Shown here piece by piece: positions 19,180 to 62,923 of a stretch of 64,000 nt of DNA (positions within the stretch are counted from its first letter, which is position 1; every line of letters begins with the position of its first letter). The translations under genes were made by a program, and so were the position numbers. The DNA comes from Actinomycetes bacterium (GTDB lineage Bacteria; Actinomycetota; Acidimicrobiia; Spongiisociales; UBA5794), in assembly GCA_023336815.1 (NCBI GenBank), contig JAMBLJ010000036.1:13991-77990 (forward strand), read 5' to 3'. The notes under the pieces are model-generated. The model did no database searches. It had not been told where the DNA came from and saw nothing but the letters and a program-made list of their open reading frames with translations.

Positions 19180-19182
19180 TTC

Positions 19183-19233
19183 ACATAGACAACTGTCTAT
19201 GTTCGGTTATAGTCGTATCGACAGATGTCTATA
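19183..19233. promoter_or_regulatory. two operator-like inverted repeats in the divergent arsR-like/VOC intergenic region
   Basis: Perfect 9-2-9 palindrome ACATAGACA-AC-TGTCTATGT (19183-19202) and related imperfect copy TATCGACA-GA-TGTCTATA (19216-19233), centres ~32 bp apart; followed by AAGGAG RBS for the + gene. Confidence 0.55.
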
Positions 19234-19248
19234 TAAAGGAGCGATGTC

Positions 19249-27875: not shown

Positions 27876-27882
27876 CGTTCGG

Positions 27883-48119: not shown

Positions 48120-48674
48120 ATGGGCCTCGGATCCACACCAACAGCTGTCCTGCGCGACGAACATCGGTTGATCCTGGAGGTTGCCGATGCGCTTGATCAG
48201 CTGTTCGCAGTCGAGCCAGGCGGAGCAGCGCTTGACTTCGATGCCGTTGATCGCTGTATCACCTTCTTCAGACTCTTCGCTGATGCCTGTCACCACACCA
48301 AGGAAGAGGATCTTCTCTTTCCCGAACTCGAGAGGGCAGGGCTTCCACACGATTCTGGCCCGATCGCGGTCATGCTCAACGAACACGAGCAGGGGCGTGT
48401 GTTCGTTCGTGCGATGGCTGACGCCATAGAGACGGCGCGAACTGGGGAATCCTCGAGCCTCGCGGACCTGCGAGCCGCTGCAGATGGCTTTGTCTCGCTG
48501 ATCGTTGCCCATATCGCCAAAGAGGACGGTGTATTGTTCAACATGGCTGATGGCATGATCGTCGGACCCGAATGTCGAGAGCTGTGTGCTGCCTACGACA
48601 CCGCGTGCAGCCGCAGATTCGAAGGGCAGTCGAAAGAGGATCTTGAGCGGTTGGGTGCAGCGATCCTCGGTTGA
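48120..48674 (+). CDS. hemerythrin-like (HHE cation-binding) domain protein
   Basis: Four-helix pattern with His/Glu ligand motifs: LRDEHRLI, FADACHHTKEEDLLFPELE, LNEHEQG, AHIAKEDGVLF. Confidence 0.75.
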   Translation: MGLGSTPTAVLRDEHRLILEVADALDQLFAVEPGGAALDFDAVDRCITFFRLFADACHHTKEEDLLFPELERAGLPHDSGPIAVMLNEHEQGRVFVRAMADAIETARTGESSSLADLRAAADGFVSLIVAHIAKEDGVLFNMADGMIVGPECRELCAAYDTACSRRFEGQSKEDLERLGAAILG

Positions 48675-48686
48675 TCTCCCTATCAG

Positions 48687-49355
48687 CTACTTCCCCCTGA
48701 GTGCTAGCGCAACGGCCTCAACGCGACTGTGAACTCCGAGTTTTGCCAGGATGTGCTGGATGTGGTTTCGGACAGTTGCCGGTGAAAGGAACAACTCTTC
48801 GGCGATCGCCTTGCCATCGAAACCTTCGGTGAGCAACTGGAGCACGTCGCGTTCCCTCGGGGTGAGCGCTGAGAGATGCTCGTTCGATGCTGCAGTGGCA
48901 GGAGTGCGGCCATCGAGTCGCTGCACGATCAGTCGCTCGAGTTCCGGGGGAAGCGAGACCTCGCGGATGAGGTGGATCAGCCGACAAGCCTCGCGCATCT
49001 CGATGGGGGGTACGATCGTTGAGGCGCTCAGCCACAGTGTCGCCCCTGAGGCGGAGCGTCCGAGTACTTCTTTCGTCTCAACCGTCTCGTCTTCCGTGCC
49101 AATCTCGGCTGCGGGACACATTCCGTTGCACACGACGTCGCCGCAGCGGTCCCGCCAACATAGGATCTCGTGACATGGACGGCCGAGAGCCTCGTCTGAT
49201 CGGTAGCCGAGAAGATCCGTCGCGGCGTCGTTCCAGGCGACGATGCGCAGATCCGGCCCGATCGCAACCATCGCGTCGCTCGTTCGTCCCATCACGTCGA
49301 GAAGTTCGACGAGAGACCCCTCGATTCCCGGTTCTATCGCTGTGACACTGGCCAT
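48687..49355 (-). CDS. PAS-domain LuxR-family transcriptional regulator (Cys-rich PAS)
   Basis: N-terminal PAS-like fold with CHEILCWRDRCGDVVCNGMCP (5 Cys), C-terminal GerE/LuxR HTH LTPRERDVLQLLTEGFDGKAIAEELFLSPATVRNHIQHILAKLGVHSRVEAV. Confidence 0.8.
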   Translation of the reverse strand: MASVTAIEPGIEGSLVELLDVMGRTSDAMVAIGPDLRIVAWNDAATDLLGYRSDEALGRPCHEILCWRDRCGDVVCNGMCPAAEIGTEDETVETKEVLGRSASGATLWLSASTIVPPIEMREACRLIHLIREVSLPPELERLIVQRLDGRTPATAASNEHLSALTPRERDVLQLLTEGFDGKAIAEELFLSPATVRNHIQHILAKLGVHSRVEAVALALRGK

Positions 49356-49412: not shown

Positions 49413-49913
49413 CTACCCATTGGCGCGGGTCCGCAACACCTCGAGGATCCCTCCTGCGGACAGGATCGTCCGCATTTCTTCTGGCAGAGAGTCGCCCTGG
49501 TATGTGTCACCCGTTGTGCGGTTGGTGACGGCTCCTGTGGCAAGGTCGACCGCGATCACTTGACCCTCCTCGAACACGTCGTGTACACCTTCACATACGA
49601 GAACAGGCAACCCGACTGCAACTGCGTTTCGCATGAAGATTCGAGCAAGCGACTCTGCGACCACACAGGCCACACCTACCGCCTTCAAGTTCTCGGGGGC
49701 TGTCTCCCTACTCGATCCACAGCCAAAGTTGGATCCCCCAACGATGACATCGCCTGGTTGACATTCCGATGCGAAGACGGGGTTCACAGATTCGAGTACA
49801 TGCAGCTTGCGTATCTCAAGTGGTGCAACAGCGTATGTGCCGGGCGACAGAACATCGGTACTGATGTCGTTTCCGAACCTCCACACCCTGCCTTGTACCA
49901 GTGTCTCAGGCAT
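49413..49913 (-). CDS. 3-isopropylmalate dehydratase-type small subunit (LeuD-like, archaeal/short type)
   Basis: 166 aa; GRVWRFGNDISTDVLSPG and VIVGGSNFGCGSSRE swivel-domain motifs of aconitase-family small subunits. Confidence 0.85.
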   Translation of the reverse strand: MPETLVQGRVWRFGNDISTDVLSPGTYAVAPLEIRKLHVLESVNPVFASECQPGDVIVGGSNFGCGSSRETAPENLKAVGVACVVAESLARIFMRNAVAVGLPVLVCEGVHDVFEEGQVIAVDLATGAVTNRTTGDTYQGDSLPEEMRTILSAGGILEVLRTRANG

Positions 49914-51177
49914 GTTTCACTCCCTGATCTCGCGGATCGGCGATCGCACCGGCAAGCGCTGAGGCGGCTACGGTCGCTGGTGATGCAAGGAAGATCTCTG
50001 CGTCTGGGCTTCCCATACGTCCGATGAAGTTACGATTGTGGGTCCCGATGCAGCGCTCGCCCGGAGCCATCAGACCACCGTGGCCACCGAAACACGGGCC
50101 ACATCCGGGTGGAAGGACAGATGCACCTGCGTCGACGAGAGTCGCCAGTACTCCGGTTTCCATTGCCTCCTTCAGGACGTCGCGTGAGGCGGGTACGACG
50201 AGTAGTCGCACACCCGGTGCGATATGTTTTCCGGCAAGCACCTCGGCTGCTGCCCTCAGGTCCTCGATCCGGCCGTTGGTGCACGAACCAAGGAAGGCTT
50301 GCTGGATGGTGAGTCCCTCGGCATCAGCGATCGGGCCGACTCTGTCGACCTCATTAGGCATGGCGATCTGTGGTTCGAGGTCCGAAAGCGAGATCTCATG
50401 CACCGTCTCGTAGACGGCGTCGTCATGCGGGCCGAACGGCTCACACCCGATGCCTCCGTGATCAAGGAGGTACGAGTTCGTGATGTCGTCGGCTGCGAAC
50501 AGACCGAACTTCGCCCCCATTTCCACCGCCATGTTCGCGACAGTGAGCCTGCTCGACATGTCAGCCCTGGAGGCTGCTTCGCCTCCGAACTCCATGGCTT
50601 TGTACTGGGCGGCATCCGCGCCGAAGCGACCTGCCAGGTACAGGATCACATCTTTCCATGTCACTGTCGGCTGGAGGGAGCCTGTGAGTTCAAACCGGAT
50701 CGTCTCGGGAACACGGAACCACAACCTTCCCGTTGCAAGCGCGTAGACCATGTCGGATGTTCCGATCCCGGTCCCACCCGCTCCGAGCGCACCGTAGGTT
50801 GTTGTGTGCGAGTCGGTGCCAACGACGAGTGACCCCGGCCGAATGTGACCGTGTTCGGGGAGGAGCTGATGACAGATTCCCGTGCCTGAGTCGTAGAAGG
50901 CCTCGATTCCGAGGCGAGTGACGTGGTCGCGGATCCGTTGATGGATAGCCGCCGCTTCAGCGGATGGCGCAGGGACGAGGTGGTCTATGACTACAACCGT
51001 CCGTTCGGGATCGAACACATCATCGAATCCGACATCCGCAAGCGTGTCGAAGACCTGGGCAGCGAATATGTCGTGCAGCAGAGCGAGGTCGATGTCGGCG
51101 ACAATGAACTCGCCAGCGACCACAGATTCGTTTCCTGTCGCTCTGGCCAGGATCCGTTCTGCCTGTGTCATTCCCAT
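49906..51177 (-). CDS. 3-isopropylmalate dehydratase/homoaconitase-type large subunit (LeuC-like, short type)
   Basis: Aconitase-family large subunit with Fe-S ligand Cys regions (GSCTNGR, PPGCGPCFGG); likely start MGMTQAERIL at 51177; overlaps leuD-like start by 8 nt. Confidence 0.85.
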   Translation of the reverse strand: MGMTQAERILARATGNESVVAGEFIVADIDLALLHDIFAAQVFDTLADVGFDDVFDPERTVVVIDHLVPAPSAEAAAIHQRIRDHVTRLGIEAFYDSGTGICHQLLPEHGHIRPGSLVVGTDSHTTTYGALGAGGTGIGTSDMVYALATGRLWFRVPETIRFELTGSLQPTVTWKDVILYLAGRFGADAAQYKAMEFGGEAASRADMSSRLTVANMAVEMGAKFGLFAADDITNSYLLDHGGIGCEPFGPHDDAVYETVHEISLSDLEPQIAMPNEVDRVGPIADAEGLTIQQAFLGSCTNGRIEDLRAAAEVLAGKHIAPGVRLLVVPASRDVLKEAMETGVLATLVDAGASVLPPGCGPCFGGHGGLMAPGERCIGTHNRNFIGRMGSPDAEIFLASPATVAASALAGAIADPRDQGVKHA

Positions 51178-51193
51178 TGTCGTGACTCCGTGT

Positions 51194-51940
51194 TCATCCT
51201 GCACCAAGGCTTCGACCACCGCACACGTACAGGGTCTGTCCTGTCACGTAGGAAGACTCATCCGCAGCGAAGAAGAGTGCAGCGTTTCCGATATCGCTCG
51301 AGGTCCCAACACGCTTGGCAGGGATCGTTTTGATAAGTCGTTCCTGGACCTCCTCCTTCAATCCACGGAACAACGGTGTGTCCACCAGGGCTGGTGCGAT
51401 AGCGTTGGCCGTGACACCGTAGCGAGCCATCTCGAGTGCCAGAGATCGGGTGAGGCTGATCACAGCACCCTTGGATGCGGCGTAGTTGGCCTGGCCCGGC
51501 CCACCGAGCCACGCCCTCGATGAGATGTTGACGATCCTGCCGTATTCCTGCTCCATCATGTGTGGCGCAGCCGCCCGACACGTGAGGAACTGTGACTTGA
51601 GATTGACCTGAAGGACGGTGTCCCAGTCCTCCTCGCTCATCTTCGCTAACCATCCGTCCCGAGCCATACCTACGTTGTTGACGAGAATATCGATGCGTCC
51701 GTACGAGTCGATAGCAGCCTGGATGAGCGAGTTCGCACCTGCTGACATCGACACATCTGCGGCATGGCCTGTGACTTCGTGCCCAGCGTTGATGAACTCA
51801 TCGACGACCTCGTCCACCTTGTCAGGGAACAGATCGTTGATGACCACCTTTGCACCCGCGGCACCGAGCGTCTCAGCGATTCCTTTGCCAATGCCCTGAC
51901 CCGATCCTGTGACGACCGCAACCCGATCTTTGACGTTCAT
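51194..51940 (-). CDS. SDR family oxidoreductase (FabG/3-hydroxyacyl-CoA dehydrogenase-like)
   Basis: ATG at 51940 with GAGGAAAACA RBS; TGSGQGIGKGIA, NNVG, catalytic YAASK; ORF track N-terminal 184-aa extension is spurious. Confidence 0.85.
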   Translation of the reverse strand: MNVKDRVAVVTGSGQGIGKGIAETLGAAGAKVVINDLFPDKVDEVVDEFINAGHEVTGHAADVSMSAGANSLIQAAIDSYGRIDILVNNVGMARDGWLAKMSEEDWDTVLQVNLKSQFLTCRAAAPHMMEQEYGRIVNISSRAWLGGPGQANYAASKGAVISLTRSLALEMARYGVTANAIAPALVDTPLFRGLKEEVQERLIKTIPAKRVGTSSDIGNAALFFAADESSYVTGQTLYVCGGRSLGAG

Positions 51941-51953
51941 TGTTTTCCTCTCT

Positions 51954-52793
51954 TCATCGTCCGGTGAACTCGGGCGGTCGTTTGTCGATGAACGCCTGGA
52001 TCCCCTCGTCTCTGTCCTGGCTCGCACGGAGAACGGCATGGCTGGTCGATTCGAGTTCGAGTCCTGTCTCGAGATCGGTTTCGGTCGCTCGATTGACGAG
52101 TACCTTGACGCGGTCATGGGAGAGCGGTGCACGGCTTGCGATGCGCTCGGCAAGCGCCATCGTTGCTTCCATGAGATCGTCGTCCGGCACGACACGGTTG
52201 ACGAGACCCATACGAAGCGCATCCTGTGCGCTGATGTGATCCGCTGTGAACATGAGCTCCTTGGTGAAGCCGGGCCCGATGAGACGGGTCGCACGCTGGG
52301 TACCACCCGCACCAGGAAGGCTTCCGACCTTCGCTTCAGGGAAGCCGAGTCGCGAGCTCTCGGTACACACGCGCAGGTCACCCGACAAGGCCAGCTCGAG
52401 TCCTCCACCGAGGGCGTACCCCGAGATCGCCATGATGACGGGCACGTGCATGTTCTCGAAACGACCGAAGACGTCGCGCACGAGGATGCCAAGCGGATCG
52501 TGTATCAATCCGGCCTCGAAATCCTTTCCCCTACTTTTGAGATCAGCCCCAACACAGAACGCCTTTGTACCGGATCCCGTCACGACAAGTACACGGGTCG
52601 CAGCGTCGGATTCGACGGCCTGAACGATGCTCTTCATCGTTTCGAGCATCGGCACGGTCATGGCGTTCATCGCGGTTGGCCGGTTCAACGTCAGGACACC
52701 AACTGCGCCCTTGCACTCGTAGAGGACAGGTGCCTCGGCGGAGGTGCTGTCTCGATCATCTGTCACGGTTGATCCCTTTCCTGGTGTGCTCAT
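51954..52793 (-). CDS. enoyl-CoA hydratase/isomerase (crotonase) family protein
   Basis: [42 protein letters not shown] oxyanion-hole/catalytic motifs. Confidence 0.88.
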
Positions 52794-53995
52794 GTCTTTG
52801 ACGCAGCCATCACCACGCCGTCCTCGTTGAGCTGCTCGATATCGGATGGTGTGAACCCGAATTCGTGGAGGATCTCATTGGTGTGTTGGCCAGCGATTGG
52901 GGGTGCTGGCCCTGTCGGGTCACAGGGTGTGTGTGAGAAGCGCCCGGGGAAGCCAGGAGAGCGAACCTCTCCCGTGGAGGGATGGTCGACCGTGACGATC
53001 GATCCACCCTGTGTGATGTGATCTTCGGCCATCAGTTCTGGATAGGACAGCAGTGGTCCGCAGAGGATGTCCGCTTGATCGAGGGCCTCGACCCAGTCAG
53101 CGGTACATCGTTCAGAAAAGAGTGGTTCCACGATCTCTCTGAGGGCAGCACGATGGTTGACCCGCTTCTCGTTCGAATCGAATCGATCGTCGACAGCGAG
53201 ATCGGGAATTCCCAGGACCCCGCAGAGCGCCACCCATCGTTTCGGGGTGTAGGCGGCGATCATGACATATCCGTCCTTCGTCCGGTATGCCTCGTTCGGC
53301 GCGGCGTAGGGCGCAGCACTGCCGAGCCGCTGTGGCGACTTCCCGCTGGCCAAGTACATCGAAAGCGGGACAACCTGATACGAGAGCAGAGCATCGAGGA
53401 GCGACACATCGATTCGCTGGCCGCCGCCTGTGCGCTCTCTCGCGTAGAGGGCTGCCAGGATCGATTGGGAAGCGAACACCCCGCCAGCCATGTCGGCCGC
53501 GGGTACACCAACCTTCACTGGAGGACCGTCCGGTGTTCCCGTCACACTCATGATGCCGCCCATTGCCTGTGCAACACCATCGACGCCAGGGCGATCACGC
53601 CACGGCCCCGATTGGCCGAACGCGGATATCGCTGCATAGATCGCCATGGGATTGGCTTTGGCGATGGCGTCGTAGCCGACCCCGAGCCTGTCGGCGACAC
53701 CGGGCCGGAAACTCTCGAGCACGATGTCGGATCGTTCGGCGAGACGCAATACGACTCCTGTTCCGCCATGTCGTTTGAGATCGACAACGATGCTTCGCTT
53801 GTTCCGATTCATACCGAGGAACGCAGCTGCGACATCACCAACGAATGGTGGTCCCAACCCTCGTCCCCATTCACCGCCTGGCGGTTCCACCTTGATGATG
53901 GTGGCGCCGAGGTCACCGAGATGCATCGCACACGTTGGACCGGCCGCTCCCTGTGAGAGGTCGAGAACGGTGACGCCATCAAGTGCTCCGCGCAT
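52790..53995 (-). CDS. CoA-transferase family III (CaiB/BaiF) protein
   Basis: [39 protein letters not shown]-terminal signature of family III CoA-transferases; ATGA-type overlaps on both sides. Confidence 0.88.
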
Positions 53996-54605
53996 GCACC
54001 TGTTCCTCCCGGGTCAAACCGAGTGTTGGGGCAGGCGATGCACCACGAACTACGAACTCGGCGATCTCGGCGGCTATCTCTTCAGGGGAGTATCGACCGG
54101 ACGGCTGGTACCAGCGAACGACGGAATTGCACATGCCAAGAATGGCCTTCGCCGCGATCCCAACGTCCTGCTCAACGAAATCGCCCGTTGCGATGCCCTC
54201 CTTGAGCATGTCTCGAAAGATACGTTCGTATCGATCCCGATTCGCGATATGTGTTGTCATGAAGTCGGGACTCAGATAGCGACCCTCTTCGATGAAACAT
54301 GCAATCGCATCCCTGTCACGGATCGCTGCCACCGTGTGAAGAGCGATGGCAGTTCTCACACGTTCAGCAATCGGGAGGTCGGACTCAGCAACCTCGCTCA
54401 CAACCGGAGTGACCCGGTTGACGGTCAACTCGATGATTTCCGAGAGGAGCGCCTGCTTGCTCGAGAAGTGGTGATACAAACTTGATTTCGAGATCCCGAC
54501 TTCTGTTGCGAGGTCGGCCATACTCGTCCCGTTGAAGCCCTTGTTGCGAAATAACGCCGCGGCTTCGAGCCGGATTCGTGCCCTGGTGGTGATCTCGTCC
54601 GTCAT
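53979..54605 (-). CDS. TetR/AcrR family transcriptional regulator
   Basis: N-terminal HTH RIRLEAAALFRNKGFNGTSMADLATEVGISKSSLYHHFSSKQAL; embedded within operon (overlaps both neighbours). Confidence 0.88.
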   Translation of the reverse strand: MTDEITTRARIRLEAAALFRNKGFNGTSMADLATEVGISKSSLYHHFSSKQALLSEIIELTVNRVTPVVSEVAESDLPIAERVRTAIALHTVAAIRDRDAIACFIEEGRYLSPDFMTTHIANRDRYERIFRDMLKEGIATGDFVEQDVGIAAKAILGMCNSVVRWYQPSGRYSPEEIAAEIAEFVVRGASPAPTLGLTREEQVHARST

Positions 54606-55138
54606 GGAGATGTTTCACGGACGAGGTGAGCTCCAGCCTCGAGAGCCTTGAGGTTCATGTCGCGGTGTTTCGCTGGAACACGTGCGGCCACGGCGGTGCG
54701 TAGCGCCTCGTCCTCGACCACGTCCGCGACTGCCTGGAGTACTCCAAGAGCGACGACACCCGTCACGAGCTGGCTGCCAGATATCGCTCTCGAGGTGTCG
54801 ACAACGGCGAACTGACGTGCGGTCCCTGCCAGGCTGGCTGGTGCACATCTACCATCGACGATCAATCGTCCGTCCGGTGAGAGCTCGGGCTGGTATCTCG
54901 TATATGCCTCTGCGCTCAGCACGATGAGGAGATCTATGTCGTCTGCAAGGGGAAATCCGATCGGTCCGGTCGCTATCACGACATCCGATCTGCTCGCGCC
55001 GCCCCTGGACTGTGGCCCATACACCTGGCTGTGAGTTGCGTGACTTCCCGAAAGGATGGCGGCCTCGGCGAGGATCCTGCCAGCGGTGACAACACCCTGT
55101 CCACCGGCTCCGGCGATTCGGATCTCGTTGCGGTTCAT
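54602..55138 (-). CDS. 2-oxoacid:ferredoxin oxidoreductase gamma subunit
   Basis: IRIAGAGGQGVVTAGRILAEAA...QVYGPQSRGGASRSDV (PorG/KorC family). Confidence 0.85.
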   Translation of the reverse strand: MNRNEIRIAGAGGQGVVTAGRILAEAAILSGSHATHSQVYGPQSRGGASRSDVVIATGPIGFPLADDIDLLIVLSAEAYTRYQPELSPDGRLIVDGRCAPASLAGTARQFAVVDTSRAISGSQLVTGVVALGVLQAVADVVEDEALRTAVAARVPAKHRDMNLKALEAGAHLVRETSP

Positions 55139-55953
55139 GACCTCCCGACCTTTCGTACCCCGGAGAACACGGGGCGCAGCTCGTTGTGAAGCACTCCTGT
55201 TGCCAGACCGGGAGGTGGGGCTGATGACGGGATGTGGTTGACGAAACGTTTGTCGGACAGTGGCCCGGAGACTCCTTCATCGCGCACTGACATCCACGTC
55301 AACATTTCAGCTCCACCACCGACCTTGTTGTACCGACCGAAGTACTCAGGGCAGTCGCTGATGACCTCGATAAACGAAAAACCGGGATGGTTCAATCCAT
55401 CGGCCATGACCTTTGTCATGTCCATCGGATTCGCTGCGAGGACTCTGGCCACGAACGAGGCACCAGCGCCGATGAGGAGTTTGCAGGCATCGAAGTTCGG
55501 TTCGGTGTTGCCGGCAGGTGTTGTCGATGCGATCGCCCCTTCCGGGGTCGTTGGAGCAGCCTGTCCACCGGTCATCCCGTAGATCGAGTTGTTGAGCAAG
55601 AGCACAGTGATATCGATATTTCGTCGAGCGGCATGGATCAGATGGTTGCCGCCGATCGCCAGGGCATCACCATCACCAGTCACCACGACGACATTGAGAT
55701 CCGGGCGTGCGAGTTTGAGCCCCGTTGCGAACGCTGGTGCCCTGCCATGTGTTCCGTGCAGGGTGCAGAAGTCAACATATCCCGCGAGGCGGCTGCTGCA
55801 CCCGATCCCCGCGACCATCGCGATCTTGTCCTGATCCAGTTGGAGTTGGTCAACCGCGGTGAGGAACGACCGCAGAACGATGCCGTGGGCACACCCCGGG
55901 CACAGGACATGGGGCATCGCCCATTCTCTGAGATATGATTTCACATCCGTCAT
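55135..55953 (-). CDS. 2-oxoacid:ferredoxin oxidoreductase beta subunit (TPP-binding)
   Basis: CPGCAHGIV N-terminal Cys motif, TPP-binding GDGDALAIGGNHLIHAARRNIDITVLLLNNSIYGMTGGQ. Confidence 0.88.
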   Translation of the reverse strand: MTDVKSYLREWAMPHVLCPGCAHGIVLRSFLTAVDQLQLDQDKIAMVAGIGCSSRLAGYVDFCTLHGTHGRAPAFATGLKLARPDLNVVVVTGDGDALAIGGNHLIHAARRNIDITVLLLNNSIYGMTGGQAAPTTPEGAIASTTPAGNTEPNFDACKLLIGAGASFVARVLAANPMDMTKVMADGLNHPGFSFIEVISDCPEYFGRYNKVGGGAEMLTWMSVRDEGVSGPLSDKRFVNHIPSSAPPPGLATGVLHNELRPVFSGVRKVGRS

Positions 55954-57116
55954 TGGCGCACCTTCTCTGCATGCAGGATCTCTTCGAGCAGGGTCGTCGG
56001 TGTTATCGGTTCGCCGTCAGCCTTGAGATATCCGAGGACCTCGGCATTGCCTGCCACGGCACGTTCGACTTCTCCGATGAGTTGACCGAGGTTCATCTCT
56101 GCAACGAGAATGGTGTCGACCCTTGATGCGACGGCAGCGACTTCTCTTGCTGGGAACGGCCACAGGGTCACAGGGCGAATGAGTCCGACCTTGATCCCGG
56201 CATCGCGCGCCCGTTCAACCGCCTCGCGGGCAGATCGTCCGACGATGCCATACGCGAAGATCGCGATGTCCGCGTCGTCGAGCATGTAGGTGTCCACCTC
56301 GACGATCTCATCGAGGTGAGCCTCTATCTTGCGATGAAGACGAGCGACAAGAGCTTCAGCTACCTGAGCGTCGTTGGTAGGAAAGCCTCGTTCGTCGTGA
56401 GCGAGACCTGTGACATGGAACCGGTATCCATCGCCAAAGGCTGGGAGCGGTGGTGTACCGTCCGGCGGTGCGACCATCGGCCAGAAGTCGTCCGGATCAT
56501 CATGTGGCTGTTCACGATCGATCACATCGACCGTCGCGGGGAGTACGACGCTCTCACGTGTATGTCCGATGATCTCGTCGTAGAGGACGATGACCGGTGT
56601 GCGAAACCGCTCCGCGAGGTTGAAGGCCTTGACCGTGACGTGGAATACCTCTCCGACAGACGACGGTGCGAGCACGATGATGGGGTGATCTCCATGGGTG
56701 CCCCAGCGTGCTTGCATAACATCTCCCTGGGAGGGGGACGTTGGGAGTCCGGTGCTCGGACCACCCCGCATGACGTTGACGATCACACACGGGACTTCGG
56801 TCATTGCGGCGAATCCAATGTGTTCTTGCATGAGCGAGAACCCTGGCCCGCTTGTTGCGGTCATCGACTTCATTCCACCGAGTGATGCGCCTACAACGGA
56901 TGCGAGAGATGCGATCTCGTCCTCCATCTGCACGAAGACCCCTCCGATGTTTGGGAGCAGTCTCACCATGTGCTCAGCGATCTCCGACGATGGTGTGATG
57001 GGATACCCACCGTAGAACCGACACCCTGCTGCGAGGGCACCTTTGACACAAGCTTCGTTTCCCTGGATCAGTTGGGCCTGAGCGAGCGGAATCTCCGGTA
57101 GTCGGGTTTCGGTCAT
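55950..57116 (-). CDS. 2-oxoacid:ferredoxin oxidoreductase alpha subunit
   Basis: GNEACVKGALAAGCRFYGGYPITPSSEI, domain I/III of PFOR-like alpha subunits. Confidence 0.88.
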   Translation of the reverse strand: MTETRLPEIPLAQAQLIQGNEACVKGALAAGCRFYGGYPITPSSEIAEHMVRLLPNIGGVFVQMEDEIASLASVVGASLGGMKSMTATSGPGFSLMQEHIGFAAMTEVPCVIVNVMRGGPSTGLPTSPSQGDVMQARWGTHGDHPIIVLAPSSVGEVFHVTVKAFNLAERFRTPVIVLYDEIIGHTRESVVLPATVDVIDREQPHDDPDDFWPMVAPPDGTPPLPAFGDGYRFHVTGLAHDERGFPTNDAQVAEALVARLHRKIEAHLDEIVEVDTYMLDDADIAIFAYGIVGRSAREAVERARDAGIKVGLIRPVTLWPFPAREVAAVASRVDTILVAEMNLGQLIGEVERAVAGNAEVLGYLKADGEPITPTTLLEEILHAEKVRQ

Positions 57117-57991
57117 CAGGCGCTCGATTCATTCGTGGTGTTCGTTCCGACGACCGCCAGCTCCCGTGGTGCATGGATATCAATGGCGAAATCGGGACAG
57201 AGAATCTCGCACAACCTGCACCCTGTGCAGGCTTCTGGATCGACGATGGTCAGCTTTCCGTCTACGTCGACCGCAAGGCAGTACTCGGGACAGACCCTCG
57301 AACAGATGTCGCAGCCCTTGCACCAGTCGTGTCGGATCTCGATCTCGTGAGGTCCGGAGAACCCGTCTGGATCCTGCGCGGCATCGGGTACTCGCGCCTC
57401 AGCGACCTGTCGACCCGCTCGGAACGCCGCGAGGTTGATCTTCTCGGTCCCGGCAGGGACCAGATCTGCGATCGCTGCTTCCCAGTGGACGTCGTCGATG
57501 TCGATGAAGGCTGCCACCGTGCCGAGGATCACGCTGTTGGCGGCACGAACGTTGCCGAGATCCGTTGCAGTTGCCGTTGCGTCGATGAGTCGCGTCTTGA
57601 GATGGCGGCTATCGAAAAGCTCGCCATCGATACCGGGGTAGCGCCGCAACCATGAACGTCGATCAGTGCATGCACCAGGGGGCACGATCGTTCGGATGTC
57701 TGCGACAACCGCTCCTCCGTCTCGAACGTACTCGACCCACCGCACCGCTTCGGCCCACTCGAATGCTGCAAGGACCTCCGCGCTCCCGAGGGGGACGAGC
57801 GGACTATCGACTCGCTCACCCCACCGAATATGGCTGAACACGGATCCTCCGCGCTGAGCCATTCCGTGGACCTCGCTTTGTTTGACATCATGACCTGCAC
57901 GCATGAGCGCGTCCGCAACGATCATGCTCGCCAGGATCACTCCCTGGCCCCCGACACCAGCCAGCAGCAGGCCTCGTGACCCCTCAGGCAT
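57116..57991 (-). CDS. iorB: indolepyruvate:ferredoxin oxidoreductase beta subunit fused to 2x[4Fe-4S] ferredoxin domain
   Basis: N-terminal GVGGQGVILAS...EVHGMAQRGGSV (IorB/gamma-type), C-terminal CKGCDICSRVCP...CTGCRLCEILCP ferredoxin motifs. Confidence 0.8.
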   Translation of the reverse strand: MPEGSRGLLLAGVGGQGVILASMIVADALMRAGHDVKQSEVHGMAQRGGSVFSHIRWGERVDSPLVPLGSAEVLAAFEWAEAVRWVEYVRDGGAVVADIRTIVPPGACTDRRSWLRRYPGIDGELFDSRHLKTRLIDATATATDLGNVRAANSVILGTVAAFIDIDDVHWEAAIADLVPAGTEKINLAAFRAGRQVAEARVPDAAQDPDGFSGPHEIEIRHDWCKGCDICSRVCPEYCLAVDVDGKLTIVDPEACTGCRLCEILCPDFAIDIHAPRELAVVGTNTTNESSA

Positions 57992-59798
57992 GGGAAACCT
58001 CCGCTGTGTTCACGAGGACGATCGCACGTGGGGGACACAGTTGAACACACAGGGTGCAACCGGTGCAGGTAATGGGGTCGATGACAACTTTGCGTCGCCC
58101 TTCGAACAGTTCGTCTGACCATACGATCGACGGACATCCTGGTGTCATACATGCCTGGCAGGCGGTGCATGCCTCAGCGAGAACGGTGAACGGTGTGTCT
58201 CTTACCTTCATCGGTGCTTCGACGCACGGCCTGTTCGTGATCACGACCGACGGGCCTGCGTGACTGATAGCGTCCCCGAGCGCTCCGTAGGTTGCTGCGA
58301 GGTCGTACGGATCGATGACCTTCACATCCTTGACCCCGACGGCTGTGCACATCGCAACCAGGTCCACCGGAGTCGCTGCGGTGCCTTGCAGCGTGACTCC
58401 GGTGCCTGGATGTTCCTGGCCGCCGGTCATGGCAGTGGTGCCGTTGTCGAGAATGAGAACCGTGATGTTGGCATGTGCGTACACCGCATCCGCCAGTGCG
58501 GCGACGCCACTGTGGAGGAAGGTCGAGTCTCCGATCGTCGCTACGACCGGTCCATCCGCTCCTCCGGAGGCGGCCATGCCGACTGCCATTCCGATACTGC
58601 TTCCCATCGCGACGCACGTGTCCATCGATGAGAGGGGTTCGAGCGCAGCAAGCGTGTAGCAGCCGATATCACCGGTTACGACTGCGCCCAATCTCTTGAG
58701 TGCCAGGAACGGAGGAGTGTGCGGGCAGCCCGGGCACATCAGCGGTGGTCTTGTGACCGTTGATGGGGCAGCCACGATCGGTATGCCCTTCGATACCAGG
58801 CCTGCTTCCGCAAAGCCGGCCCGGACCACATCCGGACTCAGTTCGCCGATCTGGGGGAAAAGCGACTTGCCCTCCACGTCGATTCCCGCTGCTCGAAGAT
58901 CGTTCTCCACATACGGGTCGAGTTCCTCGACGACGAACAGGCGGTCAACCGAATCGGCGAACCGTCTGATGCGCTCCATGGGGAGCGGATAGCTCATACC
59001 GAGCTTGAGGATGCGTGCATCGGGGAGCACCTCGCGGACGTAGTGGTGTGCGATCCCGGACGTGATGACGCCAAAATCGGTCCCCGATCCGAACGCTTCC
59101 GTGAGCGGACTTTCTTCGACGTAGTCACGCATGTCATCCAGACGCTTCAGTACCACGGGTCGTCGTCTTCGGGCATTTCCTGGGATCATCACGTACTTCG
59201 CTGGATTCTTCGTGAAGCCGAGGACAGGTCGGTCCAGTCGTTCCGCTAGTTCGACAAGACCCCTGTTGTGCGAAACACGTGTGGTCGTACGTACGAGCAC
59301 CGGTGTGTCGAAGGTTTCAGAGATCTCGAAGGCAAGCGCTGTGTATGCCTTTGCCTCAGCACTGTCGCTTGGCTCGAGGAGCGGCACTGCCGCCATGCGA
59401 GCGTACGCCCGGTTGTCCTGCTCGTTCTGGGAACTGTGCATGCCGGGGTCGTCTGCGCTGATCACAACGAGTCCAGCGCCTACGCCCGTATATGCGGCCG
59501 TCATGAACGTGTCGGCCGCCACGTTAAGACCAACATGTTTCATGGTGACGAGAGCCCGTACCCCACCGAGCGACGCTCCGAGTCCCACATCGAGTGCTAC
59601 CTTCTCGTTCGGTGACCAGCGAACGTCGATGTCATCACGATTCGCTATCGATTCGAGGATCTCGGTGCTCGGCGTACCCGGATATCCGACTGCCACGAGC
59701 ACACCCGCTTCGACCGCCCCCCTCGCAACCGCCTCGTTCCCTGACATCAGGACACGAGTGACCTCGTCGGCTTTCGAGGCAGTTGGCGCGGTGATCAC
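57984..59798 (-). CDS. iorA: indolepyruvate:ferredoxin oxidoreductase alpha subunit
   Basis: 604 aa; LMSGNEAVARGAVEAGV...GYPGTPSTEI, TPP-binding domain, C-terminal Cys clusters CTACQACMTPGCP / CTGCTLCVQLCP. Confidence 0.85.
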   Translation of the reverse strand: MITAPTASKADEVTRVLMSGNEAVARGAVEAGVLVAVGYPGTPSTEILESIANRDDIDVRWSPNEKVALDVGLGASLGGVRALVTMKHVGLNVAADTFMTAAYTGVGAGLVVISADDPGMHSSQNEQDNRAYARMAAVPLLEPSDSAEAKAYTALAFEISETFDTPVLVRTTTRVSHNRGLVELAERLDRPVLGFTKNPAKYVMIPGNARRRRPVVLKRLDDMRDYVEESPLTEAFGSGTDFGVITSGIAHHYVREVLPDARILKLGMSYPLPMERIRRFADSVDRLFVVEELDPYVENDLRAAGIDVEGKSLFPQIGELSPDVVRAGFAEAGLVSKGIPIVAAPSTVTRPPLMCPGCPHTPPFLALKRLGAVVTGDIGCYTLAALEPLSSMDTCVAMGSSIGMAVGMAASGGADGPVVATIGDSTFLHSGVAALADAVYAHANITVLILDNGTTAMTGGQEHPGTGVTLQGTAATPVDLVAMCTAVGVKDVKVIDPYDLAATYGALGDAISHAGPSVVITNRPCVEAPMKVRDTPFTVLAEACTACQACMTPGCPSIVWSDELFEGRRKVVIDPITCTGCTLCVQLCPPRAIVLVNTAEVSHA

Positions 59799-61051
59799 TG
59801 TGGTGCGGATGTGCTCAGCAGCGGCATGATCTCGTCCTCTGCGAGGACATGGTCAGATTGCTTTGCTGCGGCGAGGATCTTGTCGACCGTTGCATCGTCG
59901 AAGCTATGTCCGCGTTTCATGAGCCAGGCGACAGCGTTGGCCTTTCCACTCATCGGTCCGACGGTGATCTCCTGCTCACGTCCGAGCTCGTCTGCGGGTA
60001 CGCCGCTGTAGATGCGGTTCGCGAGCCATGTGTCTCCTGTGCGGAGCGCCTTGAGGACGGCAGCGGCGTGGACACCGGTGCTCGTCTCGAACGCGTCCTT
60101 ACCAACACTGGGACAGTTGTTCGGGACAACGGTCTCCGTTGCGGTAGAGATAGCTCGACAGTACTCGGGCAGAGCGTGAAGATCGGTGTCGAGCCATCCG
60201 AGCAGCTTGAGATTCACGAGCAGCGTCTCCATTGGTGTGTTGCCGACGCGTTCGCCGATACCGAGACCGCACCCGTGAACTCTGTGGGCACCAGCCGAAA
60301 GTGCAGCAAGCGAATTGATCACGGACAGGTTGCGATCGCGGTGCCCGTGCCAGTCGATCTTCACCTCTTCGCCGGAATCCGCGACGATCTCGACGGCGAG
60401 AGCAACGAGAGCTCTGGTTCCCCACGGGGTGGCATGCCCGACCGTATCTGAGAGACAGATCCGCCGCGCCCCTGCTTCGATCGCTGTTTGGTACACCTTG
60501 CGTAGAACCTCTGGTCGTGCACGAGTTGTGTCTTCGGTCACGTACATGACCTCGAGCCCCGATTCACGGGCAAGCGTTACGGCATCGTGTGTTGTACGAA
60601 CAAGGAAGTCGACGTCCCACCCCTCAACGAACTGTCTGATGGGGCTTGAGCCGAGGAAGAGGGCGGCCTCTATCGCAACACCCGAGCGTTGCTGCGCCTC
60701 AGCGATAGGAAGGATGTCGGCTGCGTGGGTTCGTCCTGCGCAGTTCGGCTTGACGTTGAGTCCCGCCTTGTCGATCTCGGTTGCAAGCGCTACCACGTGG
60801 TCGAGAACCACCGGATCCGCACCGGGGTACCCGATGTCTGCGGCATGGATGCTGAGGGCTTCGATCCGGTGCAGGATGTCGAGCTTCTCATCAAGGGTTG
60901 GCTGGCGCACGGATGGACTCTGAAGTCCATCCCTGAGGGTTTCGTCGTCGAGTTCAACTTCGGTTGGCGGCGAGATATCGCCTTCTCCTATGAGGTTCCA
61001 GTCGTAGAGCAGCTGTTGTTCCCGTGTCTCGGAGGTTTCTTTCGTGGTCAC
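59795..61051 (-). CDS. DRE-TIM metallolyase, 2-isopropylmalate/homocitrate/citramalate synthase-like (short form, no regulatory domain)
   Basis: DETLRDGLQS, HGHRDRNLSVINSLAALSAGA, GIGERVGNTPME motifs of LeuA/NifV/CimA family; 418 aa; first gene of minus-strand operon. Confidence 0.75.
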   Translation of the reverse strand: MTTKETSETREQQLLYDWNLIGEGDISPPTEVELDDETLRDGLQSPSVRQPTLDEKLDILHRIEALSIHAADIGYPGADPVVLDHVVALATEIDKAGLNVKPNCAGRTHAADILPIAEAQQRSGVAIEAALFLGSSPIRQFVEGWDVDFLVRTTHDAVTLARESGLEVMYVTEDTTRARPEVLRKVYQTAIEAGARRICLSDTVGHATPWGTRALVALAVEIVADSGEEVKIDWHGHRDRNLSVINSLAALSAGAHRVHGCGLGIGERVGNTPMETLLVNLKLLGWLDTDLHALPEYCRAISTATETVVPNNCPSVGKDAFETSTGVHAAAVLKALRTGDTWLANRIYSGVPADELGREQEITVGPMSGKANAVAWLMKRGHSFDDATVDKILAAAKQSDHVLAEDEIMPLLSTSAPQ

Positions 61052-61283
61052 GTCGCCTCCCTGCGCATGTACCGTCCGGCCGTTCGGTTGGCTCCGTTAC
61101 AGGGTCACAGCCAGCCGGACTCCTGACAATCCGCCCGATGTGTCATATTCCTGATACGTCTGCATCAGATGTCGGTTCGGTCATCGGGCCGGGAAAGCGG
61201 GTGATGGGTGGCCCAGAGGGATCGGTGTGGGGTCGATGCATCAGGGAAATGGCGCCCGTGGCTCATTGACGCATCGGTGTGGG

Positions 61284-61781
61284 ATGGAGACACTCGTGGA
61301 GTCGACCGAACGGCCGGACGGTTGCACGATCATCGTGGCTGATCCGACTGGTGAAGGAGGAACATTGAGCGGATCAGCTGTTGCGGTGTCGTTCCGACCA
61401 GCCGAACTGGAGGTGCGACCCGATGGGTCTGGCAACCTCCTCGGGAGCAGATGTCAATCGTGTGGTGCCCACTTCTTCCCGATCAGGGAGGCATGCTCGG
61501 GTTGTCTCAGCAGAGACCTCGACGACGTCAGGTTCTCGACGAACGGAACGCTGTACACGTACTCCGTCGTTCGCCAGTCGACTCCAGCGTTCGAGGTGCC
61601 CTACGTACTCGGCTACGTCGACCTGCCGGAAGGTGTCCGCATCATGGGACAGATCACAGGATGTCCGATCGAGGACATCTCGATCGGCATGGCGGTGGAA
61701 ATGGTGCTTGAACCCTTTGGTACCGATGACGATGGGAACCCTCTCACCGGATTCCGATTCCGACCAGCGGAGGCATCATGA
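61284..61781 (+). CDS. DUF35 OB-fold/Zn-ribbon protein (thiolase partner; BbsA/ChsH2-C-like)
   Basis: Zn-ribbon CQSCGAHFFPIREACSGC followed by OB fold (YTYSVVRQS...GYVDLPEGVRIMGQI); start ATG 61284 or TTG 61365 after GAAGGAGG; stop overlaps thiolase start. Confidence 0.75.
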   Translation: METLVESTERPDGCTIIVADPTGEGGTLSGSAVAVSFRPAELEVRPDGSGNLLGSRCQSCGAHFFPIREACSGCLSRDLDDVRFSTNGTLYTYSVVRQSTPAFEVPYVLGYVDLPEGVRIMGQITGCPIEDISIGMAVEMVLEPFGTDDDGNPLTGFRFRPAEAS

Positions 61782-62923
61782 TGACCGGTGTCCATGTAGT
61801 GGGGGTCGGGATGACCCGGTTCGGGAAACACCCTGACAGCGATGCGACCGACCTCGGATCGGCAGCCCTTCTCGAAGCCATCGACGATGCAGGTATCGAC
61901 GCACGTCTCATCGAATCTGCGTACGTTGGTCACGTGTTCCAGGGAATGGTCACAGGCCAGCGGATCCTGGCACAGGTCGGCCTAGCTGGGCTACCGCTTG
62001 CCAACGTCGAGAACGCGTGCAGCAGCGGAGCTACAGCCATTAGGGAAGCGTCGCTTGCGATCCGGGCGGGTGAGAACGATGTGGTAGTGGCCATCGGCAC
62101 CGAACACCTCACGAGTAAATTCAGCGGGGCGCTGACACCGGATCCGAGCGATCCTGAGGCCGCAGTCGGGGCAACGATGCCTGGTGTATACGCCATGCGC
62201 GCACGTCGGTACATGGAAGAATTCGGGATGACCAGGGAACAGCTCGCGCTGATCCCTGTCAAGAACAAGGCGAACGCTGCGAGGAACCCGCTTGCCCACT
62301 TCCGCAAAGAGATCACCGTTCAAGATGTGCTCGACTCACGCCCGATCGCCGACCCGCTCCATCTGCACGATTGCTCACCCGTGACCGACGGTGCCGCAGC
62401 GGTGATTCTCATGAGCGACAAAGCTGCGAAACGGTTCGCCAACGGAAGGGGTGTTCGGCTTGCTGCGTCAACCCTCCGTTCCGGATCGGTCGATGTCACT
62501 CCCACATCGATGACGTTCGAACCTCTCACCTGGGACACGGCCAAGGATGCTTACGAACGCGCAGGGATCGGTCCTGATGAAGTCGACTTCGCCGAAGTTC
62601 ACGACTGCTTCAGCATCGCAGAGGTGTTGCGTGTCGAGGGGCTCGGTCTCTTCGAACAGGGAACCTACCCCTGGGCAGTCGAACGAGGTGAGGCGAACAT
62701 CGGAGGGCGACTTCCGATCAACCCGAGTGGCGGACTGATCGGCAAGGGTCACCCACTCGGCGGAACCGGTGTCGCACAGGTGGTTGAGGTCGTCAGACAG
62801 CTGCGAGGCGAGTCGGGCGATAGGCAGATCGAGGGCGCCAGGGTTGGTGTTGCCCACTGCCGTGGAGGAAAGGCAGTCGGCATCGAAGGAGCGGCGTGCA
62901 CGGTTCAGATACTGGTTCGCTGA
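61778..62923 (+). CDS. thiolase-like protein, SCP-x/nonspecific lipid-transfer-type (propanoyl-CoA C-acyltransferase-like)
   Basis: VHVVGVGMTRFGKH, active-site region NVENACSSGATAIREA, C-terminal GHPLGGTGVAQVVEV; 381 aa. Confidence 0.85.
   Translation: MMTGVHVVGVGMTRFGKHPDSDATDLGSAALLEAIDDAGIDARLIESAYVGHVFQGMVTGQRILAQVGLAGLPLANVENACSSGATAIREASLAIRAGENDVVVAIGTEHLTSKFSGALTPDPSDPEAAVGATMPGVYAMRARRYMEEFGMTREQLALIPVKNKANAARNPLAHFRKEITVQDVLDSRPIADPLHLHDCSPVTDGAAAVILMSDKAAKRFANGRGVRLAASTLRSGSVDVTPTSMTFEPLTWDTAKDAYERAGIGPDEVDFAEVHDCFSIAEVLRVEGLGLFEQGTYPWAVERGEANIGGRLPINPSGGLIGKGHPLGGTGVAQVVEVVRQLRGESGDRQIEGARVGVAHCRGGKAVGIEGAACTVQILVR

Follow-up and report, generated by a model that had tools for sequence, protein, structure and literature searches.

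A conserved gene cluster of uncultured Acidimicrobiia with LeuA-, LeuCD-, and Bbs-like enzymes: a candidate oxygen-free route from arylpyruvates to aroyl-CoA

Layout of the operon and its divergent arm

The stretch of DNA analyzed here (the window) comprises 64,000 nucleotides (nt) of contig JAMBLJ010000036.1 (positions 13,991 to 77,990, forward strand) in assembly GCA_023336815.1 of an Actinomycetes bacterium from the class Acidimicrobiia. It contains a twelve-gene minus-strand operon that starts with a gene for a LeuA-like condensing enzyme and ends with a LeuC/LeuD pair. A divergent plus-strand arm, which starts about 313 bp from the LeuA-like gene, codes for a DUF35 protein, a thiolase, and a Mii-like isomerase. 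Based on the enzyme families encoded and on the conservation of both arms in relatives, we propose, with modest confidence, that operon and arm specify a catabolic route that would convert arylpyruvate to aroyl-CoA and succinyl-CoA. The features of the locus, in window coordinates, are as follows.

59795-61051, minus strand: LeuA-like DRE-TIM Claisen-condensing enzyme of 418 amino acids (aa) with an HMGL-like domain (PF00682)
57984-59798, minus strand: IorA, alpha subunit of an indolepyruvate (arylpyruvate):ferredoxin oxidoreductase (IOR) (TIGR03336, 669 bits against a cut-off of 651)
57116-57991, minus strand: IorB with a C-terminal 2x[4Fe-4S] ferredoxin domain (POR domain at residues 14-195)
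55950-57116, minus strand: alpha subunit of an Oor/Kor-like 2-oxoacid:ferredoxin oxidoreductase (OFOR) (NF006412, 582 bits against a cut-off of 411)
55135-55953, minus strand: OFOR beta subunit (next-best models include 2-oxoglutarate synthase beta)
54602-55138, minus strand: OFOR gamma subunit (OorC among the next-best models)
53979-54605, minus strand: TetR-family regulator within the operon (TetR_N, TetR_C_24)
52790-53995, minus strand: family III CoA-transferase of the dicarboxylate:succinyl-CoA type (PF02515, 418 bits)
51954-52793, minus strand: crotonase-type enoyl-CoA hydratase (ECH_1)
51194-51940, minus strand: BbsD-like short-chain dehydrogenase/reductase (SDR), whose real start is the ATG at 51940
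49906-51219 (alternative start 51177), minus strand: archaeal-type LeuC, aconitase-family large subunit (NF001614)
49413-49913, minus strand: small subunit of the LeuD/DmdB family (TIGR02087)
48687-49355, minus strand: Cys-rich PAS-LuxR regulator (PAS and GerE domains)
61365-61781, plus strand (likely TTG start at 61365; the open reading frame [ORF] opens at 61227): BbsA-like DUF35 protein, zinc ribbon plus OB-fold (PF12172, PF01796)
61778-62923, plus strand: BbsB-like, SCPx-type thiolase (PDB and NCBIfam comparison)
From about 62896, plus strand, cut at the window end (64000): PrpF-family, Mii-like isomerase (PDB comparison)
61071-61088, no strand assigned: operator-like palindrome O1, ACCGTCCGGCCGTTCGGT, 19 nt before the start codon of the LeuA-like gene
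61305-61322, no strand assigned: operator-like palindrome O2, the O1 sequence in reverse complement, 42 nt before the likely start of the DUF35 gene

An earlier note, made from the sequence alone, had described twelve minus-strand genes with this domain content and with overlapping or abutting start and stop codons. Profile scans and the junction coordinates confirmed that these genes are real and had been typed correctly. In operon order, the junctions measure -4, -8, -1, -4, -4, -4, -17, -4, +13, -26, and -8 nt, the value for the SDR/LeuC junction changing to +16 nt with the alternative LeuC start at 51177. Of the eleven junctions, nine are overlaps of 1 to 26 nt, and the other two are a 13-nt gap and possibly a 16-nt gap. 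The LeuA-like gene and iorA overlap by 4 nt and are translationally coupled. As the earlier note had also stated, the gene for the PAS-LuxR regulator lies closely downstream on the same strand; its distance from LeuD is 57 nt. Its membership in the transcription unit is uncertain; in locus L011, the one full-core relative for which the DNA analyzed extends past LeuD, no such gene was detected by tblastn after LeuD (relatives carry the designations L002 to L087). Terminator-like sites were no more frequent than in shuffled sequence, and a scan with promoter and terminator consensus sequences returned nothing above chance.

The 18-bp palindrome ACCGnnCGGCCGnnCGGT is present in two copies in the 64-kb window, against 0.05 expected. 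Its copies O1 and O2 occupy equal relative positions in L002, L004, L005, L009, and L010, and L008 has one copy within its incomplete upstream sequence. Since the same conserved palindrome precedes each arm, the two arms would be co-regulated. The TetR gene is kept in L002 to L011 and in L013, and the in-operon TetR protein probably represses both arms through the putative operators O1 and O2.

Enzyme families of the two arms

The LeuA-like protein scored below every NCBIfam cut-off (best model, isopropylmalate synthase [IPMS], with 180 bits against 517), so that it does not classify as LeuA, CimA, or NifV. It consists of the HMGL-like domain alone and has no C-terminal LeuA regulatory domain. 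Its best relative of solved structure, the Sulfolobus homocitrate synthase (HCS), reached just 115 bits, and the motifs LRDGLQ, HGHRDR, GIGERVGN, and TGVHAAA are all present. Five pocket residues have been reported as L/E/S/N/E for IPMS, H/R/T/S/H for HCS, and A/D/A/M/S for the 2-benzylmalate synthase HphA, in which Ala73 is the gatekeeper for aromatic substrates (PMC12961565). In an alignment with Escherichia coli LeuA, pocket positions 2 to 5 of the window protein are M169, V171, C199, and H259. Position 1 falls within the invariant segment N103-C-A-G-R107, where the register is ambiguous and all candidate residues are small. M169 and V171 are hydrophobic where IPMS has Glu/Ser and HCS Arg/Thr. 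HphA was compared by way of its published pocket residues, and the remaining ones differ (M/V/C/H here versus D/A/M/S). By this comparison, the pocket appears hydrophobic and enlarged, without the Arg needed for 2-oxoglutarate, and we propose that the enzyme is a 2-(4-hydroxy)benzylmalate synthase. A family of LeuA-like proteins with 53-61% identity (68 loci, L014 to L087) extends over Acidobacteriota, Chloroflexota, Planctomycetota, and Gemmatimonadota. Its members show the pocket stretches VMYVTED and DWHGHRDR as in the window protein; the clade of the window protein differs from the 68 homologues at just 7 positions, and the pocket does not discriminate between the two groups.

Both subunits of a LeuC/LeuD heterodimer are encoded. 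LeuC obtained 547 bits on NF001614 (cut-off 385) and, in the PDB search, 418 bits with the isopropylmalate/citramalate isomerase of Methanocaldococcus jannaschii. LeuD obtained 163 bits on TIGR02087, the LeuD/DmdB subfamily (cut-off 109). The substrate loop of LeuD is atypical. Its sequence, SPGTYAV--AP, has a 2-residue deletion and contains no Arg, compared to RYLVYT in the M. jannaschii isopropylmalate isomerase and PYLRTT in homoaconitase. This shortened loop is common only to L011, L012, and L013. LeuA-like pocket and LeuD loop would both suit a bulky apolar substituent, which is not proof of an aryl group.

In the divergent arm, a GGAGG precedes the TTG at 61365, the likely start of the DUF35 protein, and relatives of this protein are 136-152 aa long. 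Its only NCBIfam match was BbsA (85 bits, cut-off 250). The best PDB match of the thiolase was the benzoylsuccinyl-CoA thiolase BbsB (7PXP_C, 287 bits; next match, 230), and its score on the NCBIfam BbsB model was 317 bits (cut-off 750). The isomerase matched the 3-methylitaconate delta-isomerase Mii of Eubacterium barkeri (3G7K) with 339 bits versus 199 for PrpF, and its full-length orthologue in L002 reached 350 bits. Among Mii, PrpF, and OMA isomerases, it is most similar to Mii, and the residues that align with K62 and C96 of Mii, which we take to be the catalytic pair, are conserved, so that it groups with Mii.

For the CoA-transferase, the best NCBIfam models were succinate-glutarate and succinyl-CoA:mesaconate CoA-transferases; we propose that it activates phenylitaconate. 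The crotonase is proposed to carry out the step equivalent to that of BbsH. The best PDB chain for the SDR was BbsD (7PCS_B, 261 bits). A (3R)-hydroxyacyl-CoA dehydrogenase with two domains came next with 259 bits, and FabG proteins reached 212 bits at best. The SDR gene is single, with no BbsC paralogue, whereas BbsCD is a heteromer of two paralogues. A function as 2-[hydroxy(aryl)methyl]succinyl-CoA dehydrogenase is proposed.

Five genes form the IOR/OFOR cassette. IorA passes the equivalog cut-off of its model, while IorB, with its additional ferredoxin domain, scored 192 bits, under the cut-off of 237. The additional domain (residues ~215-275) has two CxxCxxCxxxCP motifs, at 224 and 255, and matches OorD/OGOR_delta models. 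This fusion is kept in L002, L004, L005, L008 to L010, and L013, with identity down to 44% (L013). The next-best model of OFOR alpha was 2-oxoglutarate synthase alpha, and the beta and gamma subunits scored under their own cut-offs; by these matches the OFOR appears nearest to Oor/Kor-type, 2-oxoglutarate-type enzymes. No separate delta subunit is encoded, and the delta is present only as the domain fused to IorB. With this domain in place of an Oor/Kor delta subunit, the OFOR would effectively be delta-alpha-beta-gamma. The conserved fusion, encoded immediately upstream of OFOR alpha, suggests a physical electron-transfer unit of IOR and OFOR.

The earlier note had found neither a LeuB-type dehydrogenase nor an acyl-CoA dehydrogenase in the operon, and this observation held more widely. 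No Iso_dh (LeuB) was detected in the operon, in the scanned window ORFs, or in the equivalent clusters of the relatives L002, L004, and L005, and neither an acyl-CoA dehydrogenase nor a glycyl-radical enzyme was found in the scanned window ORFs or in these three clusters.

Conservation and neighboring genes in relatives

We considered the best 80 matches of a scan of species genomes and the best 120 matches of each protein search. In metagenomes, more than 120 cluster-level relatives share at least 69% identity with the LeuA-like protein. No cultured carrier was present among the best 80 species genomes and the best 120 matches of both protein searches, all of which are metagenome-assembled genomes (MAGs) or metagenome contigs. 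The gene order is kept in at least six Acidimicrobiia MAGs at 69-81% identity. The earlier note had made its reading depend on whether this order occurs elsewhere, and it does: the twelve-gene order together with the divergent arm recurs in L002, L004, L005/L006, L009, and L010, and L008 is incomplete but consistent, so that the arrangement is not due to chance. Judged by contigs of identical length in the two homologue lists, the LeuA-like and the Mii-like gene are probably together on at least 18 further contigs.

Three loci differ in an informative manner. In L011, isomerase, thiolase, and DUF35 genes are divergent from a LeuA-TetR-CoA-transferase-crotonase-SDR-LeuC-LeuD series, and the five IOR/OFOR genes are absent. 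The persistent core thus comprises the LeuA-like enzyme, LeuCD, CoA-transferase, crotonase, and SDR plus isomerase, thiolase, and DUF35 protein. The L011 contig is labeled as an alphaproteobacterial (Kiloniellaceae) MAG, and its cluster proteins are 53-84% identical to those of Acidimicrobiia; either the contig was mis-binned or the pathway as a whole was recently acquired by horizontal transfer. The Acidobacteria MAG L012 shows the order LeuA-CoA-transferase-crotonase-SDR-LeuCD, again without IOR/OFOR. In L013 ('Ca. Thermofontivivens', 860-19607), the order is LIV-type permeases, acyl-CoA synthetase, crotonase, acyl-CoA dehydrogenase, LeuC, LeuD, PaaK-like ligase, LeuA-like, IorA, IorB-ferredoxin fusion, OFOR, TetR, and binding protein. 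The PaaK-type phenylacetate-CoA ligase (564 bits) is located between LeuD and LeuA-IorA. LIV-type ABC transporters are near the cluster in both L012 and L013.

Beside the isomerase, the arm runs on into three Hcr-like genes of the xanthine-oxidase family in L002, L009, L010, and L011. By a wide margin, these are most similar to 4-hydroxybenzoyl-CoA reductase (Hcr). The Hcr-like alpha subunits scored 861-882 bits on TIGR03194 (L002, 882 bits; cut-off 995) and 645 bits with PDB entry 1RM6 (next match, 300). The beta subunit, seen in relatives only, has a Cys-rich insertion. After the Hcr-like genes, relatives encode three enzymes of the anaerobic benzoyl-CoA pathway, namely, Had (6-hydroxycyclohex-1-ene-1-carbonyl-CoA dehydrogenase; 458 bits, cut-off 339), Oah (6-oxocyclohex-1-ene-1-carbonyl-CoA hydrolase; 576 bits, cut-off 464), and Dch (dienoyl-CoA hydratase). 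In addition, L004 has four Bcr-like genes and L005 BoxB- and BoxC-like genes. L028 is a short contig on which a LeuA-like gene with 57% identity is directly between the genes for Had and HcrC. Adjacency to Hcr-like, Had, Oah, and Dch genes was observed in at least six independent loci, L028 included.

Elsewhere, the gene content of the window is that of an ordinary chromosome (Mfd, enolase, EF-G, genes matching families used in menaquinone biosynthesis, glutamate synthase, SufB, and actinobacterial NucS), and the GC content across the window is uniform (~0.60). The neighboring genes 23983-25299 (chorismate-binding), 25285-26973 (thiamine diphosphate enzyme), 27006-28010 (UbiA prenyltransferase), and 28817-30100 (AMP-binding) would fit menaquinone biosynthesis as MenF, MenD, MenA, and MenE, respectively, names that follow from their Pfam families. 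The last of these was the sole candidate for a PaaK-type ligase in the window, and it is unrelated to PaaK of L013.

A hemerythrin-domain protein with a weak YtfE/RIC-like match (48120-48674, plus strand) is convergent to the operon end, and L011 also has a hemerythrin-domain protein downstream of LeuD (16402-16944, minus strand). This protein may serve in Fe-S repair or in oxygen sensing for the cluster, in which Fe-S enzymes that are labile to oxygen are numerous. A 918-aa protein (19768-22524, plus strand) combines GNAT acetyltransferase, CoA-binding, succinyl-CoA-ligase-like, and ATP-grasp domains, which is the architecture of Pat-type/ADP-forming acyl-CoA synthetases. Archaeal ADP-forming synthetases are partners of IOR; the synthetase-like gene is about 27 kb away from the operon. 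Two antisense ORFs, 63004-63879 (minus strand) over the Mii-like gene and 52982-53956 (plus strand) over the CoA-transferase gene, look like spurious ORFs of the kind typical of GC-rich DNA; the former has no Pfam or NCBIfam match.

Candidate pathway, alternative readings, and biological meaning

The route that we propose from sequence and gene context would start with 4-hydroxyphenylpyruvate and/or phenylpyruvate, the substrates that fit best, derived from tyrosine or phenylalanine. The LeuA-like enzyme would condense the arylpyruvate (Ar-CH2-CO-COOH) with acetyl-CoA to give 2-benzylmalate, from which LeuCD would remove water to form 2-benzylmaleate. The Mii-like isomerase would then shift the double bond so that it is conjugated with the ring, yielding benzylidenesuccinate, that is, (E)-phenylitaconate. 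The family III CoA-transferase would convert it to phenylitaconyl-CoA, the donor being the succinyl-CoA released later. Phenylitaconyl-CoA is an established intermediate of the Bbs pathway of toluene catabolism. Its hydration by the crotonase and the oxidation of the resulting benzylic alcohol by the BbsD-like SDR would lead to benzoylsuccinyl-CoA, which the BbsB-like thiolase and its DUF35 partner would cleave into (4-hydroxy)benzoyl-CoA and succinyl-CoA. In relatives, an Hcr-like reductase would strip the 4-hydroxyl group, and benzoyl-CoA would be processed by Dch, Had, and Oah together with enzymes of the Bcr or Box type. Such a route would be free of oxygen and would proceed without a glycyl-radical enzyme, alpha-oxidation, or an acyl-CoA dehydrogenase. 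The latter would be unneeded because dehydration and isomerization of the free acid already produce the double bond, and LeuB would be unneeded because the maleate intermediate is diverted before rehydration.

Several observations favor this route. It makes use of every enzyme gene of both arms and requires neither of the two missing dehydrogenases; the isomerase is much nearer to Mii than to PrpF and keeps the Lys and Cys; and the core set persists in L011 without IOR/OFOR. An aryl substrate is favored because SDR and thiolase are closest to BbsD and BbsB, because BbsA is the only NCBIfam match of the DUF35 protein, and because Hcr-like, Had, Oah, and Dch genes adjoin the cluster in relatives. 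The small gatekeeper, the hydrophobic M169 and V171, and the shortened LeuD loop would be in keeping with a bulky aryl group. The earlier note had proposed a skeleton in which a 2-oxoacid and acetyl-CoA give an alkylmalate that is processed by LeuCD, CoA-transferase, hydratase, and SDR. The comparative data favor that skeleton; however, the divergent arm had been missed, and with it the double-bond shift and the thiolytic step, so that the end of the route could not be named. The same note had spoken of branched or aryl-substituted substrates and thus left the class open; the resemblance to BbsD and BbsB, the Hcr/Had/Oah/Dch neighbors, and the enlarged hydrophobic pocket point to the aryl part.

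A number of facts weigh against the proposal. No enzyme of this clade has been characterized, and all steps are inferred. The model scores of BbsA, BbsB, and Hcr are all under the NCBIfam equivalog cut-offs, the window stops inside the isomerase gene, and Hcr, Had, and Oah were seen in relatives only. Exact look-ups with the LeuA-like protein and the thiolase of the window yielded 2-kb Logan contigs only. The CoA-transferase is a single gene, not a heteromeric BbsEF, and is nearer to SUGCT (270 bits), YfdE (248 bits), and mesaconate transferases than to BbsF (159 bits) or BbsE (120 bits). The crotonase is generic, with short-chain hydratases as its only best solved relatives, and the lead of BbsD over the (3R)-hydroxyacyl-CoA dehydrogenase in the SDR comparison amounts to 2 bits. 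LeuA-like homologues at 53-61% identity carry the same pocket residues in heterogeneous, partly housekeeping contexts, so that the pocket argument is not specific to the clade, and 12 of the 68 distant LeuA-like loci have LeuCD plus Iso_dh, several of them with a thiolase too. In L012, thiolase and isomerase were not found within 10 kb. L013 and L065 (Methylomirabilota; LeuD-LeuA-acyl-CoA dehydrogenase-IorA) combine LeuA/LeuCD/IOR with an acyl-CoA dehydrogenase, a cluster type that may have a different downstream chemistry.

The part of the scheme with the least certain role is the IOR/OFOR cassette. The earlier note had these oxidoreductases feeding or leaving the route, which was only loosely right. 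They are not part of the core chemistry, as is evident from L011 and L012, which keep pathway genes without them, and the five genes represent a mobile accessory cassette. In a feeder role, IOR would convert arylacetyl-CoA, CO2, and reduced ferredoxin to arylpyruvate by reductive carboxylation, the irreversible LeuA-type condensation would draw this reaction forward, and electrons from the Oor/Kor-type OFOR would reach IOR through the fused ferredoxin domain. Alternatively or in addition, the cassette could supply reduced ferredoxin for Hcr and Bcr. The feeder role is the likelier one by a small margin, in view of the PaaK-type ligase that adjoins LeuA-IorA in L013 and of the carboxylating IOR of Methanococcus maripaludis. 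In that archaeon IOR is used biosynthetically, in the carboxylating direction, with aryl acids, as quoted from Porat et al. in PMC4162585.

Parts of the proposed route resemble known systems. The Bbs beta-oxidation of toluene in Thauera, Aromatoleum, and Geobacter shares the proposed last four steps, including the thiolase/DUF35 pair and the products benzoyl-CoA and succinyl-CoA. The cluster differs in that it has neither benzylsuccinate synthase nor BbsG, no glycyl-radical enzyme or BbsG-type dehydrogenase being encoded; one CoA-transferase of another subfamily replaces BbsE/BbsF and one SDR replaces BbsC/BbsD; and phenylitaconate would arise as the free acid from benzylmalate, not via dehydrogenation of benzylsuccinyl-CoA. 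The first two proposed enzymes are those of the HphA/HphCD/HphB homologation of phenylalanine and tyrosine in cyanobacteria, with a small gatekeeper residue in both cases (PMC12961565). The Hph pathway is biosynthetic, its LeuB-type HphB leading to a longer amino acid, whereas the cluster has no LeuB and the maleate would be diverted to catabolism by the isomerase.

Nicotinate fermentation in E. barkeri presents the same pair of a Mii-type isomerase and a LeuC/LeuD-DmdB-type hydro-lyase that act on diacids of the itaconate/maleate/malate type. In its late steps, Mii acts beside the LeuCD-like dimethylmaleate hydratase DmdAB. The proposed direction is reversed in the cluster (malate to maleate to itaconate type), the substituent would be benzyl instead of methyl, a LeuA-type synthase takes the place of dimethylmalate lyase, and there is no B12 mutase. 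The anaerobic Pad route for phenylalanine and phenylacetate, with phenylacetyl-CoA:acceptor oxidoreductase (PadBCD) and phenylglyoxylate:acceptor oxidoreductase (PadEFGHI), has the same start and end, with arylpyruvate or arylacetyl-CoA entering and benzoyl-CoA leaving. It is, however, a molybdenum-dependent alpha-oxidation in which CO2 is lost, whereas here C2 would be added and C4 released as succinyl-CoA; OFOR alpha reached only 86 bits on the PadG model. In Thauera aromatica, a 2-oxoglutarate:ferredoxin oxidoreductase is the electron donor for benzoyl-CoA reductase. It is likewise an Oor/Kor-type OFOR encoded with ferredoxin-dependent enzymes of the aromatic ring, whereas in the cluster the ferredoxin-like delta domain is fused to IorB and OFOR always occurs with IOR. 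A search of full-text literature, which leaves most subscription journals outside its coverage, returned no description of such a route. The enzymes all come from known families, and the four final steps are those of the Bbs pathway; the novelty is therefore at the pathway level and not categorical.

Of the other readings, the one that survives best retains the same chemistry for a non-aromatic 2-oxoacid (R-CH2-CO-COOH to R-CO-CoA plus succinyl-CoA), for example a branched-chain keto acid or another one derived from an amino acid, with the benzoyl-CoA genes as mere neighbors. The scheme is indeed valid for any 2-oxoacid with a beta-methylene group, LeuC and LeuD match isopropylmalate/citramalate isomerases best, the LeuA-like family is widespread beyond aromatic contexts, and LIV-type ABC transporters are close by in L012 and L013. 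We nevertheless regard this reading as unlikely, given that Hcr-like, Had, Oah, and Dch genes recur next to the cluster in independent loci, that SDR and thiolase have BbsD and BbsB as best solved relatives, and that IorA surpasses the IOR equivalog cut-off. PaaK in L013, the small gatekeeper, and the shortened LeuD loop argue in the same direction.

A one-carbon homologation appears rather improbable. In this case IOR would carboxylate arylacetyl-CoA, and the LeuA-like enzyme and LeuCD, together with a LeuB from elsewhere, would produce 2-oxo-4-phenylbutyrate. OFOR would convert this compound to 3-phenylpropionyl-CoA, with electrons returning to IOR via the fused ferredoxin, and ordinary beta-oxidation by dehydrogenase, hydratase, SDR, and thiolase would end at benzoyl-CoA and acetyl-CoA. 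The necessary LeuB and acyl-CoA dehydrogenase are missing in the cluster and in L002 to L011, the Mii-like isomerase and the dicarboxylate-type CoA-transferase would have no role, thiolase and DUF35 protein are similar to BbsAB, for which the substrate to be cleaved is alpha-branched, and L011 retains the pathway genes without IOR or OFOR. Its merit is that it assigns a stoichiometric role to both IOR and OFOR and accounts for the conserved IorB-ferredoxin fusion. It also agrees with L013 and L065, where an acyl-CoA dehydrogenase accompanies LeuA, LeuCD, and IOR (L013 having PaaK as well), and with the LeuCD plus Iso_dh, in several cases with thiolase, at the 12 distant LeuA-like loci.

We give still less credence to a mosaic of independent modules under one promoter, namely, amino acid oxidation by IOR/OFOR, chain elongation by LeuA/LeuCD, and generic beta-oxidation, that would not constitute a single pathway. 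Such independence would explain the absence of the five-gene cassette from L011 and L012 and its other partners in L013, and most components do score at the family and not at the equivalog level. However, LeuA-like enzyme, CoA-transferase, crotonase, SDR, and LeuCD stay together in MAGs labeled as Acidimicrobiia, Kiloniellaceae, and Acidobacteria, start and stop codons overlap, both arms have the operator motif in common, no LeuB is available for biosynthesis, and the LeuD loop is specific to the clade.

Three further candidates were rejected and a fourth was set aside. The one set aside is homocitrate/homoaconitate chemistry, along with a speculative cycle in which 2-oxoglutarate would yield malonyl-CoA and succinyl-CoA (the Arg that binds the distal carboxylate in HCS and in homoaconitase LeuD is replaced by Met or deleted). 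The rejected ones are leucine biosynthesis or generic chain elongation (no LeuB, LeuA-like enzyme under all equivalog cut-offs, atypical LeuD loop); the AcnD/PrpF variant of the methylcitrate cycle (PrpC, AcnD, and PrpB are not in the cluster, and the isomerase is Mii-like, not PrpF-like); and itaconate/mesaconate degradation (MaoC hydratase and citramalyl-CoA lyase are absent, and a tertiary alcohol cannot be oxidized by an SDR).

The proposed arylpyruvate route may be part of a wider capacity, namely, the complete anoxic shortening of arylacetates and arylpyruvates to aroyl-CoA, widespread in uncultured Acidimicrobiia. In this tentative extension, which we consider doubtful, IOR and OFOR would act as one unit, electron-coupled through the ferredoxin domain of IorB, 2-oxoacid oxidation would drive the carboxylation of arylacetyl-CoA, and the LeuA-like enzyme would trap the arylpyruvate irreversibly. 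If true, it would represent a carbon-conserving alternative to fumarate addition and Pad alpha-oxidation that dispenses with radical enzymes as well as with Pad-type molybdoenzymes.

The anaerobic degradation of aromatic compounds converges on benzoyl-CoA. To our knowledge, the known entries to it from the C6-C2 and C6-C3 skeletons of tyrosine, phenylalanine, and products of their fermentation depend on PadBCD, which is a molybdoenzyme of the membrane, on ammonia-lyase reactions, or on the addition of fumarate by glycyl-radical enzymes. The route proposed here, whose enzymes are all soluble and of known folds, would add a fourth logic, in which leucine-type chain-extension enzymes are recruited to catabolism. 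A Mii-type double-bond shift would stand in for LeuB and acyl-CoA dehydrogenase, and the side-chain carbons would be regained as succinyl-CoA. The proposal would also provide a function for a large LeuA-like family and for the conserved IOR-OFOR ferredoxin fusion, and would assign a role in aromatic carbon turnover to abundant uncultured Acidimicrobiia.

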